Shown here: positions 44,686-52,442 of the stretch, in pieces
Layout: each line of letters opens with the position of its first letter
Position numbering within the stretch: position 1 is the stretch's first letter
Virus record (IMG/VR): IMGVR_UViG_3300033146_004974
Location: 1-64,000 of that record
Strand: one strand, 5' to 3'
DNA from: a virus
DNA length: 64,000 nt
Position numbers and translations under genes: made by a program
The notes under the pieces: model-generated
What the model saw: the letters and a program-made list of their open reading frames with translations, nothing else
Database searches by the model: none
Told to the model about the DNA's origin: nothing

Positions 44686-44901
44686 ATGAAATTTTGCAAA
44701 GAATCGGAAGAAGTCAAATCGTTTGAAAATGATTTTGAAGCTTTTGTTTTATATGAAGAATGGGGTGTTGATGATTGTTGTTTCAAATGTTGTTTTATTT
44801 ATTTCGCATGTTGTTTTATTGCAGTTGATAATACGCCCGTCTTAGAGAACCAAGTGGGACCTACACATGTAAGTTACAATTTCAGCAGAAATTGGATGTG
44901 A
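44686..44901 (+). CDS. 71-aa Cys-rich peptide, copy 1
   Basis: Acidic N-part, core DDCCFKCCFIYFACCFIA, conserved C-part. Confidence 0.6.
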   Translation: MKFCKESEEVKSFENDFEAFVLYEEWGVDDCCFKCCFIYFACCFIAVDNTPVLENQVGPTHVSYNFSRNWM

Positions 44902-44931
44902 TACAATAAAGTTGGCAAAAGACGAAAGTCT

Positions 44932-44987
44932 TCGAAACAGCACGAATCCTCGCCGTGTTTGACTCCTGAGCGCGGGTGTGACATTGT
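44932..44987 (+). promoter_or_regulatory. phage promoter family member
   Basis: TCGAAAC..AATCC..TTGACT-N17-CATTGT. Confidence 0.7.
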
Positions 44988-45037
44988 GAAGGTGCAAGCG
45001 AAGGAATATCACAAACACGTTGTACAAGGCGTTGACA

Positions 45038-45232
45038 ATGAAATTCCGTCAAGAATCAGAAGAAGTCGAATCGTTTGAAAATGATTTCGAAACTTTTGTT
45101 ATATATGAAGAATGGGATATTGATGATTGTTATTTCGCATGTGGTCCTGCTGGAGTTGATAATACGCCCCACTTGGAGAATCAAGTGGGGCTTACACATG
45201 TAAGTTACAATTTCAGCAGAAATTGGATGTGA
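45038..45232 (+). CDS. 64-aa peptide, copy 2
   Basis: Paralog of copy 1, frame preserved, core DDCYFACGPAG. Confidence 0.6.
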   Translation: MKFRQESEEVESFENDFETFVIYEEWDIDDCYFACGPAGVDNTPHLENQVGLTHVSYNFSRNWM

Positions 45233-45262
45233 TACAACAAAGTTTGCGAAAGGTGATACATC

Positions 45263-45318
45263 TTGAAACGGCGCAAATTCGTACTGTGCTTGACTCCTAA
45301 GCGCTAGTGTGGCATTGT
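45263..45318 (+). promoter_or_regulatory. phage promoter family member
   Basis: TTGAAACGGCGCAAATTC..TTGACT-N17-CATTGT. Confidence 0.75.
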
Positions 45319-45369
45319 GAAGGTGCGAGCACGGAATCACCACAAACACGTTGCACAAGGCGTTGACAA

Positions 45370-46164
45370 ATGTATATTCAAAACTTTGTTGTTGAAGTTA
45401 CCAGAAGATGTAACATGGTTTGCTCTCATTGCTTGCGAGGGAAAGCCCAGAATCTTGAAATGAGTCGAGAAACAGTTTCGCGTTTGTTTCGCGGAATTGA
45501 TAGTATTAGGGCTTTAACGATAACAGGTGGAGAGCCAAGCCTCGCCGTCGAAAGAATTGAATGGATCATTGATGAATTGAAAAACAATCATGTCGAACTT
45601 GGCTATTTTTATATTGCAACAAATGGTAAGAAAGTTTCTCAAGAGTTTTTGATTGCTTTGATCAAACTTTATGCACTTTCTGATGAAAAAGATATGTGCC
45701 AAGTCCTTGTTTCGACAAGCTATCATGATTTGCCCGTGAATAATGATCAATTGGAACTCCTTTCGGCATTAAATTTTGTCGAGATTCAGAAGGATGCTCC
45801 TTTCGCCTTGATCGAACAAGGATTCGCAGAAAATTTGTCCGGCAACAAAAGAGAATTAAGCCTGGAATGGTTTGAAGTTGATGAAGATAGTATAATGGAT
45901 GGATATATTTATATCAATGCAAAAGGAGATTTCATTCCATCTTGCGATATGTCTTATGACAATCAAGATTTGGTTGCCAAATTTGGCAATGTGAACGATG
46001 ATGGTTTTAATTATTTTGAGGCCATTGAACAGTTTAATGAAATACAGGAATATTCTCCCATCAATGAGGACAGTGAATATGGGATTTGCTTTAGTGAGTT
46101 GATCGATAGATTGATGGAAAAGTACAAAAACATTTGGAGTTTTAAATGTTCATCTGCTGCATGA
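45370..46164 (+). CDS. radical SAM enzyme 1
   Basis: EVTRRCNMVCSHC (CxxxCxxC), ITGGEP, ATNG, YINAKGDFIPSC. Confidence 0.93.
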   Translation: MYIQNFVVEVTRRCNMVCSHCLRGKAQNLEMSRETVSRLFRGIDSIRALTITGGEPSLAVERIEWIIDELKNNHVELGYFYIATNGKKVSQEFLIALIKLYALSDEKDMCQVLVSTSYHDLPVNNDQLELLSALNFVEIQKDAPFALIEQGFAENLSGNKRELSLEWFEVDEDSIMDGYIYINAKGDFIPSCDMSYDNQDLVAKFGNVNDDGFNYFEAIEQFNEIQEYSPINEDSEYGICFSELIDRLMEKYKNIWSFKCSSAA

Positions 46165-46598
46165 TTATTGTTACAATTGTAGCATGGATTTCTCAAAATG
46201 CTTTGCATGAAATGGCGCACTTTTTGGTGGCGAAATATCATTTCAATGTTAAGCTGAAAACATTCAGAATCTTTCCTCACTTTCTGGGAAAAGATGGAGA
46301 AGTCTATTATCTCCCATTCACTCTCAAAAAGCCTGAAGGTGCGCGGTTTTTATTCGCAAGGGTTGAATGGGAAGGAGGAGAGTCAGAAAGTGCCGCAAAA
46401 ATGAGACAAGTTCTTGCAGCACCGCTTGTTGCTTCATTTGCTTTAATCCTTCTGCTGCTCATTGCAGAAAGTTTGACAGGATTCAGCTTTTTTTATTCCC
46501 CATTTTATCTAACATCAGGAATCAACATCGTTTGGTGGATTTGGGGAATGAAATTTGGCTCAAAATTTTCTGATGGCAAAAGATATTTGTCATTGTGA
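46146..46598 (+). CDS. membrane metalloprotease-like protein (M50/S2P-like)
   Basis: ALHEMAH within a TM segment, VLAAP, C-terminal SDG. Confidence 0.65.
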   Translation: MFICCMIIVTIVAWISQNALHEMAHFLVAKYHFNVKLKTFRIFPHFLGKDGEVYYLPFTLKKPEGARFLFARVEWEGGESESAAKMRQVLAAPLVASFALILLLLIAESLTGFSFFYSPFYLTSGINIVWWIWGMKFGSKFSDGKRYLSL

Positions 46599-46604
46599 GG
46601 AAAA

Positions 46605-47627
46605 ATGGAAATTTTTGACAACAAAGAATTCAAGATTCTTAGGTCAGATGAGTACAACTTCGTTTTTGACAAAAAGACTGGAGTTTTCAAAAGGTGGGGA
46701 AAGACTTTTGACGATGATCCAGAAGAAGGTCTGCCAGAAATTGCCGATATTGAAATTTCAGAAGTTTGTTCTGGAGTCTCTGGAAGTGGTTTGTGTAATT
46801 TTTGTTATAAAAGCAACACAAAGTCTGGGCGGAATATGAGCCTTGAGACCTTTAAAAAGGTCTTTTCCAATCTTCCGAAAAGCGTGACTCAAATTGCTTT
46901 TGGAATTGGTGATATTGAAGGTAATCCAGAGATTTGGGATATTTTGTGGCACACCAGAAACAATGGTGTCATTCCCAATATTACAATAAATGGACAAGGG
47001 ATAACAAAAAAAATTGCGCATAAGTTGGCCAGTGTTTGCGGCGCTGTTGCAGTCTCTTTGTACAACAAAGAATTAACATTTGATGCTGTTCATAAGCTTT
47101 CTGAAGAAGGTTTAAAGCAAGTTAATATCCATTTCTTTTTGGCTGAAGAAACATATGAAAGGGCGTTAAGAACTCTTGATGATATCAAGAATGACGAAAG
47201 ATTGGCCAATTTGAATGCGCTAGTCTTTTTGTCGCTGAAGTCAAAAGGCCGTGCCAAAGGTAATTTCCATTCTCTTTCGCAAGAGAGATTCACCAATCTT
47301 GTGGAAAAATCAATGGAAAAAGGAGTTAGAATCGGTTTTGATTCATGTTCGGCATTTAAATATCTGAATGCTGTTGGATATGAAGAACCACATATTTCAT
47401 TCACAGAGCCTTGCGAAAGCACTCTTTTTTCAATGTATATAAACGTTGAAGGAAAATTTTTTCCATGTTCTTTTATGGAAGGTGAAAAAGGTTGGGAAAA
47501 AGGAATTGATTGCACAAGTGGAGAATTTTTGAAAGCAGTATGGAATCATGGGAGAACATGCAGAACAAGAAATTTAGTGAAAATTGCAAGAAAATCTTGT
47601 GTTAATTGTCACCATTTTAAAATTTGA
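46605..47627 (+). CDS. radical SAM enzyme 2 with SPASM/twitch-like C-terminus
   Basis: CSGVSGSGLCNFC (Cx8Cx2C), NITING, PCES..YINVEGKFFPCSF..CVNC. Confidence 0.88.
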   Translation: MEIFDNKEFKILRSDEYNFVFDKKTGVFKRWGKTFDDDPEEGLPEIADIEISEVCSGVSGSGLCNFCYKSNTKSGRNMSLETFKKVFSNLPKSVTQIAFGIGDIEGNPEIWDILWHTRNNGVIPNITINGQGITKKIAHKLASVCGAVAVSLYNKELTFDAVHKLSEEGLKQVNIHFFLAEETYERALRTLDDIKNDERLANLNALVFLSLKSKGRAKGNFHSLSQERFTNLVEKSMEKGVRIGFDSCSAFKYLNAVGYEEPHISFTEPCESTLFSMYINVEGKFFPCSFMEGEKGWEKGIDCTSGEFLKAVWNHGRTCRTRNLVKIARKSCVNCHHFKI

Positions 47628-47637
47628 GGGAAAATAA

Positions 47638-48162
47638 GTGAAAGTTAGACACGGTTTTGTTTCAAATTCATCGTCAAGTTCGTTTCAATGCGGAGTTTGT
47701 GATGAAATTGCATCAGGTTGGGATGTCTCTTTTGAAGATTGGGGGATATATCAGTGCGGCATTTGTGAACAAACATATTGCGAACATCATGCGTTACCAT
47801 TGACGTTTGGGAATGTCCAAAGGGGAGTTGAAAAACTGATAAAAAACAGTGAAAAATCATTTTCCAATGATTTTCATGTTGACCAAGAAGTTTTGCAAAT
47901 TTTGCAGAATCATTCTGGGATGCTTGATGAACACGGACTGGATGATTTGCAAGAACTTTTCGAAGCCGGGACAAAATGGTCTGAACCAATGGTGAGAAAC
48001 TTTGTTGCAACAGTTTGTTGTCCAATGTGTTCAATGCAAAAGATGTCTCCAAGATTATATGTTAAGTACATCTTGAAACATCATTTGAAGATGACTGAAG
48101 AAGAGGTGCTGGCTTCTTTGAGAGGGAATGGTGTTACATTTGAACAACTTATGTCACCATGA
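47638..48162 (+). CDS. 'FVSNSSSSS'-motif Cys-rich protein
   Basis: MKVRHGFVSNSSSSSF N-terminus; CGVC, CGIC..CEHH, CPMC. Confidence 0.8.
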   Translation: MKVRHGFVSNSSSSSFQCGVCDEIASGWDVSFEDWGIYQCGICEQTYCEHHALPLTFGNVQRGVEKLIKNSEKSFSNDFHVDQEVLQILQNHSGMLDEHGLDDLQELFEAGTKWSEPMVRNFVATVCCPMCSMQKMSPRLYVKYILKHHLKMTEEEVLASLRGNGVTFEQLMSP

Positions 48163-48220: not shown

Positions 48221-49474
48221 ATGAGTACATTCACATTCAAAGAAGTTTTGGCTGCAATCCCATATCTCATTGACAATCAGACTGGGAAGAAAAAGTTTGG
48301 CATCATGCTTCGTGGTCCACATGGAATTGGCAAAAGCGAATTTATTGCTCAAATTGGCCACAAATTGGGGAGAAAAGTTCTTGATGTTCGTCTTTCACAA
48401 AAAAGTGAAGGCGATTTGATGGGATTGCCAACAATTGTTGAAGGAGATGATGGTTTTTCTTCAACAAGATTCCACTCTCCAGAATGGTTTATGCAAGCCT
48501 GTCGCGAACCAGTTGTTCTTAATATGGATGAGTGGGATCGAGCAATAACAGAAGTTCGCCAAGGAGCTTTTGAAATTGGCGATTCAAGAAAGCTGGATAT
48601 GAAAGAGCTTCATCCAGATACTTTAGTTTTTACAGCGTGCAATTCTGGAACTGAATTGACTTCTGGTCAATATGATGTTAATGATCTTGATCCAGCGGAA
48701 CTTGATCGTTGGTTTGTCATTGATTTAGAACCTTCCGTTGACGACTGGTTGGCGTGGGCTTCAAAAAATGAAATTCCAGAAGTGATTTGGGATTTTCATA
48801 ATGAAAATTCAAGAACCACAAATCATCTGGAATTCAATGGGGTTTCAGAACCAAACAAGATTTACCCTTCGAGAAGAAGTTGGGCAAGATTTGCGGACGC
48901 AATCAATAATTATCTTCTTCTTGAAAAGAAAAAAAATGTTGGGGAAATGGATAAAGAAATCCTTTTCTTCCTTGGTTGCGGATTTCTGGGGGATGAGACA
49001 ACAGCAGCTTTTATTAAATACACTCAAGAGTACAAACATGGTGAAAAACCTTCCCTGGAAGACATTCTTGACCATGGGAAGTTCCACAAGTTGAAGACCT
49101 GTGAAGCAACTGATCACATTGCAATTGTGGAGAAGTTTAAGAAAAAATATCCTGTCACAAAGGGTGATACATTCATTCTTAATGGGCAACAGATTGAGAA
49201 TCTTGCGGAGTATGCAGTAAATTATTGCCCACCTGAAGTAGCAATTTTGTTGTTTAATCATGTCACTTTCCTTCCTGCAAAGGATGAAGAAATTCAAGTT
49301 TTGATGAGACGAACGAGGAGAGAAAGAGGGAGCACTCACCCAACGGGACGGTTGTTTTCAGATGCAATGAGAATTTATAATTGCAAAGTTTTTGAAAAGA
49401 GAACAGGGGAGTTGACAACATTCAAAAAGTATTTTGCTTCATTTGCTGGGAAATCTTCTCTGATCAGTTTTTAA
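48221..49474 (+). CDS. MoxR-like AAA+ ATPase
   Basis: GPHGIGKS, DVRLSQ, NMDEWDR, DPAELDRW, PSRRSW. Confidence 0.9.
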   Translation: MSTFTFKEVLAAIPYLIDNQTGKKKFGIMLRGPHGIGKSEFIAQIGHKLGRKVLDVRLSQKSEGDLMGLPTIVEGDDGFSSTRFHSPEWFMQACREPVVLNMDEWDRAITEVRQGAFEIGDSRKLDMKELHPDTLVFTACNSGTELTSGQYDVNDLDPAELDRWFVIDLEPSVDDWLAWASKNEIPEVIWDFHNENSRTTNHLEFNGVSEPNKIYPSRRSWARFADAINNYLLLEKKKNVGEMDKEILFFLGCGFLGDETTAAFIKYTQEYKHGEKPSLEDILDHGKFHKLKTCEATDHIAIVEKFKKKYPVTKGDTFILNGQQIENLAEYAVNYCPPEVAILLFNHVTFLPAKDEEIQVLMRRTRRERGSTHPTGRLFSDAMRIYNCKVFEKRTGELTTFKKYFASFAGKSSLISF

Positions 49475-49513: not shown

Positions 49514-50830
49514 ATGTCTCTTTTTGAAAAAGAAGTCGTCAGATTATTATACGAAGAACCGTTTTTTGCAGCTTTGTCAATGAGGATTAATAAACGTGCG
49601 ATAAAAGGTGGGCATATTGCAGGAGTGGGGATTGTCAATGGACGTTTGGAAATGGTTTATAATGAAGAAATGTTTTTCAGTCTCGATGCTGAAACGCGTC
49701 TTGGGCTTTTAAAACATGAAATGTATCACATTGTTTTGGCGCATTTAACGGAAAGGCTACTGTACTCAGACGAATCAAAAGAGATGCAAGAAATTTATGC
49801 AGTTGTTGCTAACATCGCTAAAGATTTAGCAATTAATACGCATATCCCCTCATTGAGCGGTGTTAAAAAGGTGCTTGTTAAAGGTGAAATGCAGGAAATT
49901 TATTTTTGTATTCCAGGTGGTAAGGGATATGAAAAATATCCTCCGAATTTGACTTCTGAAGCATATTACGACATGCTTAAAAAAGATGAGGAATTCCTCG
50001 CGACATTCAAATGTTCAGTTTGTAAAAAGAAGATTCCATTTAATGAAAAAGACGAGCTGAAAGATGATTATTGCAAAGGTTGCAAAGGTTACGGCGGGGT
50101 TTTGGGAGAAAGTGGTCCAGAACATGGGAATCACGATAAGCATGAAGGATTTGGAGAATCGAAAGTCAATGATGCGATTCTTAAGGATGTTCTAAACAAG
50201 GCTTACAAAGATGGATTGCGCAAAGGTTTTGGGTCTTTGTCGCATGAATATCAGGAGCTTTTGAAAAATTATTTTTCAAACTATGTTGATTGGAAGATGC
50301 TTTTTAGAAGATTTGTAAAATTTTCCATCAGAAATGGAAAAAAATCATCTTTGATGAAGTTGAACAAACGATATCCTTATATGTTTGCAGGAAAGAAATA
50401 TAACAGAACTGCCAACATTGCGGTGTCAATTGACGAAAGCGGCTCTGTTAGCAATGAAATGCTTGAAGTGTTCATAGCAGAGCTGAACTCTCTTTCGAGA
50501 ATGGTGGAATTTACTGTTATCCCTTTTGACACAAAGATAAACAAAAAAAATATCTTTGTGTGGAAAAAGGGGAGCAAATTAGATTTTATTCGTCGCCAAG
50601 CTGGCGGAACCGACTTCGATGCACCGACAAACTGGGTGAATGAGAATAAATCTCCAAATGGTTCTAAATTTGATGGTCACATTATTCTAACAGATTTAGA
50701 AGCTCCTCAACCTGGCCCAAGTCGTTGTAAAAGAATGTGGATTACAACTGAATCATGCAGTAATAGCTATTTCGATCCAAAAAGCATTGGAGAAGTTGTT
50801 ACTTATATCCCGGATGAACAACTAAGATAA
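49514..50830 (+). CDS. VWA-like domain metallopeptidase (DUF2201-type)
   Basis: KHEMYH, NIAKDLAIN, IDESGSV (MIDAS), GGTDF, LTD. Confidence 0.9.
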   Translation: MSLFEKEVVRLLYEEPFFAALSMRINKRAIKGGHIAGVGIVNGRLEMVYNEEMFFSLDAETRLGLLKHEMYHIVLAHLTERLLYSDESKEMQEIYAVVANIAKDLAINTHIPSLSGVKKVLVKGEMQEIYFCIPGGKGYEKYPPNLTSEAYYDMLKKDEEFLATFKCSVCKKKIPFNEKDELKDDYCKGCKGYGGVLGESGPEHGNHDKHEGFGESKVNDAILKDVLNKAYKDGLRKGFGSLSHEYQELLKNYFSNYVDWKMLFRRFVKFSIRNGKKSSLMKLNKRYPYMFAGKKYNRTANIAVSIDESGSVSNEMLEVFIAELNSLSRMVEFTVIPFDTKINKKNIFVWKKGSKLDFIRRQAGGTDFDAPTNWVNENKSPNGSKFDGHIILTDLEAPQPGPSRCKRMWITTESCSNSYFDPKSIGEVVTYIPDEQLR

Positions 50831-51640: not shown

Positions 51641-51690
51641 GAATTCGCGCGCCACTTGACTAGACATGTGCCTATGTTAATGTCTAGTCA
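51641..51690 (+). promoter_or_regulatory. promoter overlapped by an 11-bp inverted repeat; probably leaderless
   Basis: GAATTC..TTGACT-N16-TAATGT; TGACTAGACAT-N12-ATGTCTAGTCA ends at ATG 51690. Confidence 0.55.
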
Positions 51691-52442
51691 TGGCATGGCA
51701 AAGGGGGAGTAGCGTGCGACAAAAAATAGAATTTCTCTTGAATTCGATTACGAACGTTAAAACAGGAAGACATGCTATAAGAAAGATGTCTAGACTTTTA
51801 AAGGAAAATGGCGAATTTGTTGCACCAATTGGTTTGGGCAATATAAAAACGGGATTGCCCGGATTTTATCGAAAGGTTGGTGACAATTGTCCAACTTGTA
51901 AGTTTAAAAACGATGGGTGTTACGCTCAACTTGGTTATGTTGGGATTGTTGAAAAACGTTCTCCAACTTCTTCTGAAGCGGCTTTGAACGGATTTCTTAT
52001 CTCCACAATTGTTTCGCAAAAATATTACAACAAACCTTCAAGATTGTTTGTATCTGGTGATATTTTTATAAATGGAGAATATGACAAAGAATTACATAAT
52101 TCTTTAATTGAAGCTGGACAAATTCTCCAAACAATTTTTGGAACAGAAACTCTTGCATATGGATACACTCATGGCAAAAATCTTTTAAAAGAAATTAAAG
52201 AATTGAAGAGTGCTGGAATTGTTTTATTGCAATCAGAATTTCATGGTGTTGGAGGTTCTGTTGTTCATCATTTTAATAAATTTGATGAGCTAAAAAGTAA
52301 TGAATTTCGCTACATAAAATGTCCTGCACAGCTCAGAAAAGATTTCCAATGCAGTGATTGCAAATTATGTATCAAATCTTATGAAAAGAAGTTGTGCATT
52401 GTTTTTAATCCACATGGGGCACTGAAAGGGAAATTCAAATGA
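51690..52442 (+). CDS. Cys-rich phage protein (GP88-like)
   Basis: NIKTG, CPTC..GCYA, RLFVSGD, YGYTH, CPAQ..CSDCKLC. Confidence 0.7.
   Translation: MAWQRGSSVRQKIEFLLNSITNVKTGRHAIRKMSRLLKENGEFVAPIGLGNIKTGLPGFYRKVGDNCPTCKFKNDGCYAQLGYVGIVEKRSPTSSEAALNGFLISTIVSQKYYNKPSRLFVSGDIFINGEYDKELHNSLIEAGQILQTIFGTETLAYGYTHGKNLLKEIKELKSAGIVLLQSEFHGVGGSVVHHFNKFDELKSNEFRYIKCPAQLRKDFQCSDCKLCIKSYEKKLCIVFNPHGALKGKFK

Follow-up and report, generated by a model that had tools for sequence, protein, structure and literature searches.

A viral stretch of 64,000 nucleotides (positions 1 to 64,000 of IMG/VR record IMGVR_UViG_3300033146_004974; hereafter the window) carries two adjacent genes, one for a radical S-adenosylmethionine (SAM) enzyme, open reading frame (ORF) A, and one for a protein, ORF B, that begins with a serine-rich peptide, here called the tag. 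This enzyme and this tag go together in many large phages and in some bacterial defence loci and, hence, the tag probably serves the enzyme as a handle for gripping, and probably modifying, many proteins that are otherwise unrelated. On balance, we consider it likely that ORF A belongs to the SPASM/twitch peptide- and protein-maturase class of radical SAM enzymes and modifies the tag of its client, ORF B.

The stop codon of ORF A lies at 47625-47627 and ORF B starts 10 nt further on with a GTG at 47638, which is directly preceded by TAA so that no longer reading of ORF B is possible. The cluster region of ORF A reads EVCSGVSGSGLCNFCYKSN and the N-terminus of ORF B reads MKVRHGFVSNSSSSSFQCGVCDE. 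An earlier note, made from this sequence, had described a Cx8Cx2C radical SAM protein followed at 10 nt by a tag-led protein with cysteine pairs, and this description was correct; the cysteines read in ORF B are C18/C21, C40/C43, C48 and C127-C128/C131. When the whole viral contig (85,850 bp) was scanned, ORF B was its sole tagged ORF. Coordinates are collected in Table 1.

Table 1. Features of the enzyme-tag locus in the window (positions of the window) and, in the last row, examples of the bacterial cassettes described below. A1 and A2 are the alignments of the enzyme and of the ORF B subfamily, AF2 is AlphaFold2 and HMM is hidden Markov model.
Feature	Position	Strand	Basis
ORF A, radical SAM enzyme, 340 aa	46605..47627	+	phrog_7293 match, AF2 fold, Foldseek
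ORF A radical SAM cluster motif C55-x8-C64-x2-C67, CSGVSGSGLCNFC	46767..46805	+	read from sequence
ORF A residues 25-32 (TGVFKRWG), N-terminal beta-strand	46677..46700	+	predicted pairing with tag residues 2-6
ORF A auxiliary-cluster domain, C248, C270, C288, C335	47346..47609	+	alignment A1, HMM match
GAGGG, Shine-Dalgarno-like, 7 nt 5' of the ORF B GTG start	47626..47630	+	sequence reading
ORF B, tagged protein, 174 aa, zinc-ribbon and helical body	47638..48162	+	subfamily alignment A2, AF2
ORF B 16-residue tag, MKVRHGFVSNSSSSSF	47638..47685	+	family consensus, A2, predicted interface
Bacterial cassettes, three examples	L142 659-5365; L162 244-2439; L256 1586-6038

The enzyme encoded by ORF A

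Radical SAM enzymes bind a SAM-cleaving [4Fe-4S] cluster through a motif of three cysteines, canonically CX3CX2C. In an alignment of 37 relatives of ORF A (A1), C55, C67 and Y68 are invariant and C64 is kept in at least 90 %, and G26 is also invariant with G32 kept in at least 90 %. The loop between the first two cluster cysteines ranges from x3 to x17, the canonical CX3CX2C being present in 11 of 41 relatives. The CX8CX2C of ORF A is, thus, a length variant and not a different cluster type, and its description as atypical in the earlier note needs correcting. Four further cysteines, C248, C270, C288 and C335, are invariant in A1. The SPASM/twitch hairpin CX9-15GX4C is present as C270-x12-G283-x4-C288, and of the CX2CX5CX3C that completes the seven-cysteine SPASM motif and its second auxiliary cluster only C332-x2-C335 is found. 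As only four auxiliary cysteines are invariant, the phage enzymes have retained a single auxiliary-cluster set, and the C-terminus of ORF A is a reduced, twitch-like SPASM domain. A bacterial orthologue, for which the best local tblastn identity to the phage-clade enzymes is 32-40 %, matches both PF04055 (53.7 bits, cut-off 29.5) and the Pfam SPASM model PF13186 (21.8 bits, cut-off 21.5) and keeps CX2CX5CX3C.

ORF A matches the PHROG HMM phrog_7293 with an E-value of 6.8e-88. Its AF2 model (predicted local distance difference test, pLDDT, 95.4; predicted template modelling score 0.92) has a four-stranded N-terminal sheet, including a strand at residues 28-31, before the barrel. A Foldseek comparison of this model with the PDB returned 202 matches at E<=0.001, and all those listed are radical SAM enzymes. 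The best are SkfB, CteB, TigE, SuiB, anSMEcpe and EpeE (E 1e-10 to 1e-6) and, as judged from the model, ORF A's closest folds are therefore peptide- or protein-modifying radical SAM enzymes; viperins and DesII are likewise among the matches. When the enzyme profile was compared with PDB sequences, the only credible matches were SkfB (E 6e-4) and the twitch region of BtrN (E 0.005). Designed pentatricopeptide repeats, which headed that list, were judged to be spurious because they arose from many sub-threshold repeats of one 30-residue stretch. No NCBIfam maturase model came near its own cut-off against ORF A, and PADLOC models gave only weak generic viperin matches for the radical SAM proteins. 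A PqqD-like winged-helix element (RiPP recognition element, RRE, where RiPP denotes a peptide that is made on ribosomes and modified after translation) was not found in ORF A, where residues 1-31 make up four beta-strands without a helix and no PqqD match was obtained.

Relatives of ORF A with approximately 43 % identity occur in 173 of 50,697 cultured-phage records, which are of T4-like phages with Klebsiella, Enterobacter, Cronobacter, Citrobacter and Escherichia as hosts. In five contigs (G033, G047, G086, G087 and G088) the enzyme gene was matched as two pieces, with either a gap of approximately 120-1000 bases or an insertion inside one open frame. A Slopekvirus paper reports an enzyme gene split beside a GIY-YIG homing endonuclease gene (PMC9960720).

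The tag and its linkage to the enzyme

Tags were sought in IMG/VR with a 46-bit restricted degenerate DNA pattern for K-x-R-x-G-F-V-S-N-S-S-S-S-S-F, which requires K2, R4, G6, F7, V8, N10 and F16 in one copy or more at each locus, and tagged proteins were then counted with a protein regular expression that fixes N10 and S12. As residues fixed beforehand cannot be used to judge invariance, statements on invariance in the tag rest on A2, an alignment derived with HMMER and independent of the regular expression, in which K2, R4, N10, S11 and S12 are invariant. Among the matches listed, the pattern identified at least 120 viral stretches from 107 contigs. These contain 327 tagged ORFs (299 unique and 284 of 60 aa or longer), and the distance between start codon and tag is identical in 308 of the 327. 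Their tags give the consensus M-K-[IV]-R-x-G-F-V-S-N-S-S-S-S-S-F-[IV]-[IV], and the motif recurs far beyond chance. The serine codons of the tags alternate between TCN and AGY from copy to copy; hence selection acts on the peptide and not on the DNA, and this switching of codon families excludes conservation at the DNA level as a repeat or recombination site. A glycyl-radical-like reading of R-x-G-F was also dropped, as G6 is replaced in some tags.

Past residue 18, the bodies of the listed tagged ORFs fall into 87 BLAST components, the largest with 30, 30, 24, 23 and 17 members, and they range from approximately 70 to approximately 300 aa. They are acidic, with a median isoelectric point of 4.45 and 92 % of values below 5.5, a comparison that is only indicative because the background consists of mechanically called ORFs. 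Pfam returned no usable family for ORF B and ten other tagged proteins, and nine of those ten matched phrog_7397 through their N-termini. Unrelated body groups also share short C-terminal motifs, namely G(A/G)GR(D/N)G (GGRDG, GAGRNG), SHH and GTR(Y/S)C, which hint at a second shared terminal signal.

The ORF B subfamily comprises 1131 cluster representatives at E<=1e-3 (HMMER), and C18, C21, C40, H45, C48, C128, P129 and C131 are conserved in A2. In the AF2 model of ORF B (pLDDT 81.5), residues 1-12 are without secondary structure, residues 1-10 have a mean pLDDT of 51 and the first strand starts at S13. The least structured residues are, thus, the best conserved, and in this the tag resembles a linear motif that is read by a partner. 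The body of ORF B gave little else: Foldseek found no PDB match at E<=0.001, tblastn no match in cultured phages, PHROG no match at E<=0.01 and the ESM Atlas only unnamed viral clusters, while a word-indexed search of 5.8 billion proteins returned ORF B itself and nothing else related among 15 candidates.

The earlier note had named genomic linkage of tag and radical SAM gene as a check, and linkage was found in both directions. Starting from the tag, 99 of the 107 listed contigs were searched in sets of 49 and 50, and the enzyme was found on 74 (38/49 and 36/50), including every contig of 90 % completeness or more (16 of 16) and every one of 52 % or more (38 of 38); inside the short tag-seeded loci themselves it was present in 43 of the 120 listed. 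Starting from the enzyme, and taking the best 80 of 113 enzyme-seeded loci, at least one tagged ORF lay within 10 kb in 74 of the 80. In these loci the protein regular expression found 264 tags on the strand of the enzyme and none on the opposite strand, with up to 13 tagged ORFs in a single 20-kb locus. Clustering of all ORFs of the loci showed that the enzyme is the sole widely shared non-tag family, occurring in 47 loci compared to 13 for the next. Two tagged proteins of phage Miro were found in 175 and 174 cultured-phage records, with a range of hosts identical to that of the 173 that carry the enzyme; the cultured phages with both represent one related clade. The Miro genes include CPT_Miro164 for the enzyme and CPT_Miro114 and CPT_Miro119 for tagged proteins. 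One of the Miro tagged proteins, CPT_Miro114 (L127 680-1150), matches phrog_132, 'head-tail adaptor', with an E-value of 1.1e-9, and some GenBank records use this label at the same place. The label is doubtful as the neighbours are small genes annotated only as hypothetical.

Enzyme and tag also covary. A divergent enzyme clade, sharing 36-37 % identity, was found in nine contigs with the cluster region CVHGASGLCIQSGVQC. In this clade (L097 5182-6261; L102 5845-6906) the cluster cysteines are spaced C-x7-C-x6-C and, thus, lack the CX2C spacing that all other members keep. In the 13 loci of this lineage all 30 tags read FVTNSSSSSF, with Thr9, and Thr9 tags were not found with a main-clade enzyme. 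Hence, all paralogous tags of a genome shift together with the enzyme.

Predicted complex and a possible reaction

ORF A (with A1) was folded together with residues 1-45 of ORF B (with A2), SAM and two [4Fe-4S] clusters. The three runs gave interface scores (ipSAE) of 0.85, 0.83 and 0.85, the best control reaching 0.02, and agreed in at least 78 % of contacts. In the tool's own calibration 58 of the 80 solved complexes attained the score mark, as did 2 of the 110 mismatched pairs, and this calibration is only roughly valid here because our own alignments and added ligands were used. The confident interface consists of exactly residues 1-17 of the tagged protein. The lowest-error contacts are those of tag residues 2-6, predicted to pair with the enzyme strand 25-32 and with residues 265-268. 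The remaining tag contacts are to family-invariant residues that line the barrel: D48, A98, G100, N125, T127, G146, N174, H176, G244, D246, S247, S276, Y278 and C288-F290. The model supports binding of the tag by the enzyme, as a prediction only.

We infer that the tag is covalently changed, and the kind of change likewise. Residues 2-6 of the tag (K-V-R-H-G) would act as a mini-leader, docking by beta-augmentation on the N-terminal sheet of the enzyme, and residues 7-16 (FVSNSSSSSF) would then run across the open face of the barrel and over the SAM/[4Fe-4S] site. At this site one Asn or Ser residue of the tag would lose a hydrogen to the 5'-deoxyadenosyl radical, with the auxiliary cluster accepting the electron. 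A two-electron oxidation would be the likeliest outcome, either of Ser to formylglycine or by formation of a carbon cross-link to Phe7 or Phe16. The formylglycine type of Ser oxidation is that of anSME and BtrN. Judged from the sequences, a twitch/SPASM domain together with tag positions 9, 13 and 14 that tolerate Ser or Thr would fit an oxidation or cross-link of this kind, while an epimerase that depends on a cysteine is disfavoured because no cysteine is invariant outside the two clusters in A1. As up to 13 tagged proteins of one locus in related phages share an enzyme, this would be a RiPP-like tagging system at the protein level, with one enzyme for many substrates and with clients that are mostly small and acidic and have unrelated bodies.

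The nearest structural counterparts are the RiPP maturases of the SPASM/twitch type, SkfB (6EFN), CteB (5WHY) and SuiB (5V1T), with Foldseek E-values of 1.2e-10 to 5.7e-9 against ORF A. They share with it the radical SAM barrel and a Cys-rich auxiliary-cluster domain and also the logic by which a single enzyme recognises a conserved stretch of peptide in a substrate that is genetically linked to it. However, identity is only 13-16 %, and ORF A has the four-stranded N-terminal sheet in place of a PqqD-like RRE. In addition, instead of a leader-core peptide there is a tag of 16 residues at the N-terminus of folded proteins of 70-300 aa, and the tag has no Cys, Lys or Trp suited to the known cross-links.

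The anaerobic sulfatase-maturating enzyme, anSME (examples are anSMEcpe, 4K36-4K39, and AtsB), is a protein-modifying radical SAM enzyme that oxidises a Ser or Cys side chain. anSMEcpe is among the top fold matches of ORF A (E 1.2e-8), the twitch region of BtrN matches the ORF A C-terminus (E 0.005), and a Ser-rich tag would suit the dehydrogenase chemistry of both. In contrast, the anSME substrate motif (C/S)-x-(P/A)-x-R is not in the tag, there is no sulfatase, and anSME has two auxiliary clusters whereas the four invariant auxiliary cysteines of the ORF A family correspond to one.

Bacterial cassettes, alternative readings and neighbouring genes

The tag DNA pattern also matched 48 stretches among 185,579 species genomes, mostly contigs of metagenome-assembled genomes (MAGs) with very mixed taxon labels, and the enzyme was within 8 kb in 22 of the 48. 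Five genomes, labelled Verrucomicrobiota, Terriglobales, Sulfuricurvum (two) and Fimbriimonadaceae, contain a one-strand cassette of four genes, for a STAND NTPase, an ORF of 130-141 aa (120-140 aa where the plasmid cassettes are counted in), a tagged protein of approximately 135 aa with MKIRxGFV[ST]NSSSTSF, and a radical SAM-SPASM protein whose gene overlaps that of the tagged protein. The STAND protein has SMEK_N and NACHT domains and matches PADLOC Avs2 models (E 1.1e-15). The L142 cassette lies amid fragments of type I restriction-modification genes. The enzyme was found at 80 % coverage or more on seven plasmids of Alphaproteobacteria, and the four-gene cassette on plasmids of Agrobacterium, Rhizobium and Rhodobacter; Agrobacterium pAt Ach5 is annotated with these four genes, and its tagged protein starts MKLKMDFVSNSSSTSF. 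Though the earlier note gave the motif as recurring near radical SAM genes in phages and in anaerobes, only the phage part stands as written, the supposed anaerobe proteins being mostly from MAG contigs of mixed label, with the addition of a real bacterial cassette.

These cassettes recall the KpAvs2-Avap1-Avap2 operon, in which, according to Bechon et al. (2024; PMC11564622), an Avs2-type STAND NTPase is combined with the radical SAM protein Avap1, which is required against some phages and has no known substrate, and the small accessory protein Avap2, which is defined by DUF6375 (PF19902) and binds the STAND protein. Compared by gene content only, the bacterial cassettes likewise combine an Avs2-like STAND protein, a small ORF and a radical SAM protein. 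However, the phage window has no Avs2-type STAND NTPase, which is confined to the bacterial cassettes, and neither the tagged proteins nor the small cassette ORF showed DUF6375 (none at E<=10). PF19902 also gave no match over its cut-off in the five cassette genomes and none in four further genomes or among the precomputed Pfam domains of 120 listed homologues; none was found in 400 genomes of one class either, a result of little weight as the control matched nowhere. Hence, as DUF6375 was undetected in the cassette proteins, we do not claim membership of the KpAvs2 operon type for them.

A number of observations weigh against the view that the enzyme modifies the tag. The tag contains no Cys and matches no known radical SAM substrate motif, and ORF A, which has no Pfam match at E<=0.1, lies below Pfam's Radical_SAM model. 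No enzyme was seen on 25 of the 99 tag-seeded contigs searched, all of them at most 51 % complete, and 6 of the best 80 of 113 enzyme-seeded loci have no tag within 10 kb, one exception being L220, where the tags lie 45 kb off on the same contig, in L106. Adjacency is not universal, as the tagged genes of Slopekvirus phages are approximately 20 kb from the enzyme. The covariation of enzyme and tag probably represents a single evolutionary event, and in the predicted complex, with its roughly calibrated score, the partner has a pLDDT of 47-49 and its own fold is uncertain. On the other side, the suggestion in the earlier note that the tag is a portable one on variable proteins and a substrate of the adjacent radical SAM enzyme has gained support from the linkage, the clustering on one strand, the covariation with enzyme clade, the predicted interface at residues 1-17 and an N-terminus that is disordered yet maximally conserved.

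The linkage would fit equally well if the tag were a docking handle that the enzyme binds without modifying it. On this view, the tagged proteins would serve as exchangeable adaptors or regulators, bringing host proteins, nucleic acids or small molecules to the radical SAM enzyme or switching it on or off. The 87 groups of diverse bodies among the listed tagged ORFs suit adaptors as well as they suit substrates, and a precedent could be seen in the KpAvs2 operon, where Avap1 is without a known substrate and its partner binds the STAND protein (PMC11564622). We nevertheless regard docking alone as unlikely, if a reading to be kept in view, for the predicted interface goes beyond a peripheral strand and passes through the interior of the barrel with its invariant lining, the invariant Ser/Asn core (N10, S11, S12) exceeds what a docking strand needs, and the enzymes closest in fold act on the very peptide that they bind.

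Two other explanations leave the enzyme out. The internal proteins of T4 carry an invariant N-terminal peptide, the capsid-targeting sequence, and the tag, likewise an unchanging N-terminus on small phage proteins that vary, one of which (in Miro) has the phrog_132 'head-tail adaptor' match, resembles it. The tag could, thus, direct proteins to a capsid, to secretion or to a protease, the radical SAM gene co-occurring by shared ancestry. This is very unlikely in view of the two-way linkage over very diverse contigs, the covariation of tag and enzyme clade and a predicted complex that passes its controls, and also because in bacterial chromosomes and plasmids a single tagged gene overlaps the radical SAM gene beside a NACHT protein with no capsid present. 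FVSNSSSSSF could also be a loop with a structural or catalytic role, such as phosphate binding, in one very divergent protein superfamily that has nothing to do with the enzyme. The SSSSF part does form the first beta-strand of the ORF B zinc ribbon in the AF2 model, and several body groups carry the short conserved C-terminal motifs (GGRDG, GAGRNG, SHH, GTRYC). However, in that model the most conserved residues, 1-12, lack structure and have low confidence, bodies of such different sizes fall into BLAST groups that are not linked, the tagged proteins have no Pfam family and the enzyme linkage is left unexplained, making this reading extremely improbable.

A broader extension of the view that the enzyme modifies the tag is an arms race, in which the enzyme-tag pair would be a weapon shared by phages and bacteria. 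The bacterial tagged protein, matured by its radical SAM enzyme, would work as effector or co-factor for an immune sensor, an Avs2-like NLR, and large phages would have captured the enzyme and tagged dozens of acidic anti-defence proteins, so that one radical reaction, yielding for example a reactive formylglycine aldehyde or a cyclophane staple, would arm or stabilise the entire arsenal, itself fast-evolving. Taken jointly, these proposals are speculative and we rate them as rather improbable. The phage tagged proteins could, in addition, be decoys for the bacterial enzyme.

The flanking genes that were compared seldom or never recur with the pair. Upstream are two paralogous small Cys-containing peptides (44686-44901 and 45020-45232; ends MKF...ESEEV...FSRNWM), a second radical SAM gene (45370-46164) with a canonical CX3CX2C and a weak SPASM match (Pfam, 29.8 bits), and a gene for an M50-like membrane protein (46146-46598) that overlaps it. 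Together these may be a separate peptide-modification module, and the genes of 44686-46598 recurred in none of 124 related loci. Downstream of ORF B are a MoxR-like AAA ATPase (48221-49474) and a DUF2201 protein (49514-50830) with a HExxH metallopeptidase domain and a von Willebrand factor A (vWA)-like domain, and further on a 250-aa protein (51690-52442) whose C-terminus matches DUF7227 (E 1.3e-11). A vWA protein is also encoded between the two tagged genes of phage Miro. The MoxR and vWA genes, the second radical SAM gene and the M50-like gene were rejected as members of the system, as only 0-4 of 249 loci have relatives of them near the enzyme or tags.

Searches of the literature for the motif strings, phage radical SAM/SPASM proteins, NACHT with radical SAM and N-terminal tag maturases, which did not extend to supplements, found no description of such a system, and Slopekvirus papers only annotate a 'peptide-modifying radical SAM enzyme' (PMC9960720). 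The nearest printed concept is the C-terminal conserved peptide of the FxSxx-COOH systems, which belong to the vWA-MoxR conflict systems (Kaur, Burroughs, Iyer and Aravind 2020; PMC7159879). There, too, a radical SAM-SPASM gene lies by small fast-diverging proteins that share one short terminal peptide in conflict-system contexts, and the window has a MoxR-like ATPase and a vWA/metallopeptidase gene after ORF B. In contrast, the conserved peptide described in that source is C-terminal and released by a zincin peptidase whereas the tag is N-terminal, and relatives of the window's MoxR and vWA genes are near the present enzyme in just 2 and 4 of 249 loci, respectively.

If the proposed modification is real, large phages and bacterial defence loci would share a widespread system of post-translational protein modification for which we found no printed description. 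The logic of RiPPs, one maturase and a shared recognition sequence, would be extended from peptides to folded proteins, and a first functional handle would be gained on at least 1131 clusters of phage-protein sequences that are without a family. It could also account for the radical SAM partner class of Avs2-type immune operons and could yield a compact enzymatic protein tag of 16 residues. The cultured E. coli and Klebsiella phages with the system include RB43, RB16 and Miro and, as the pair is present in tractable phages and on Agrobacterium plasmids, it is directly testable.

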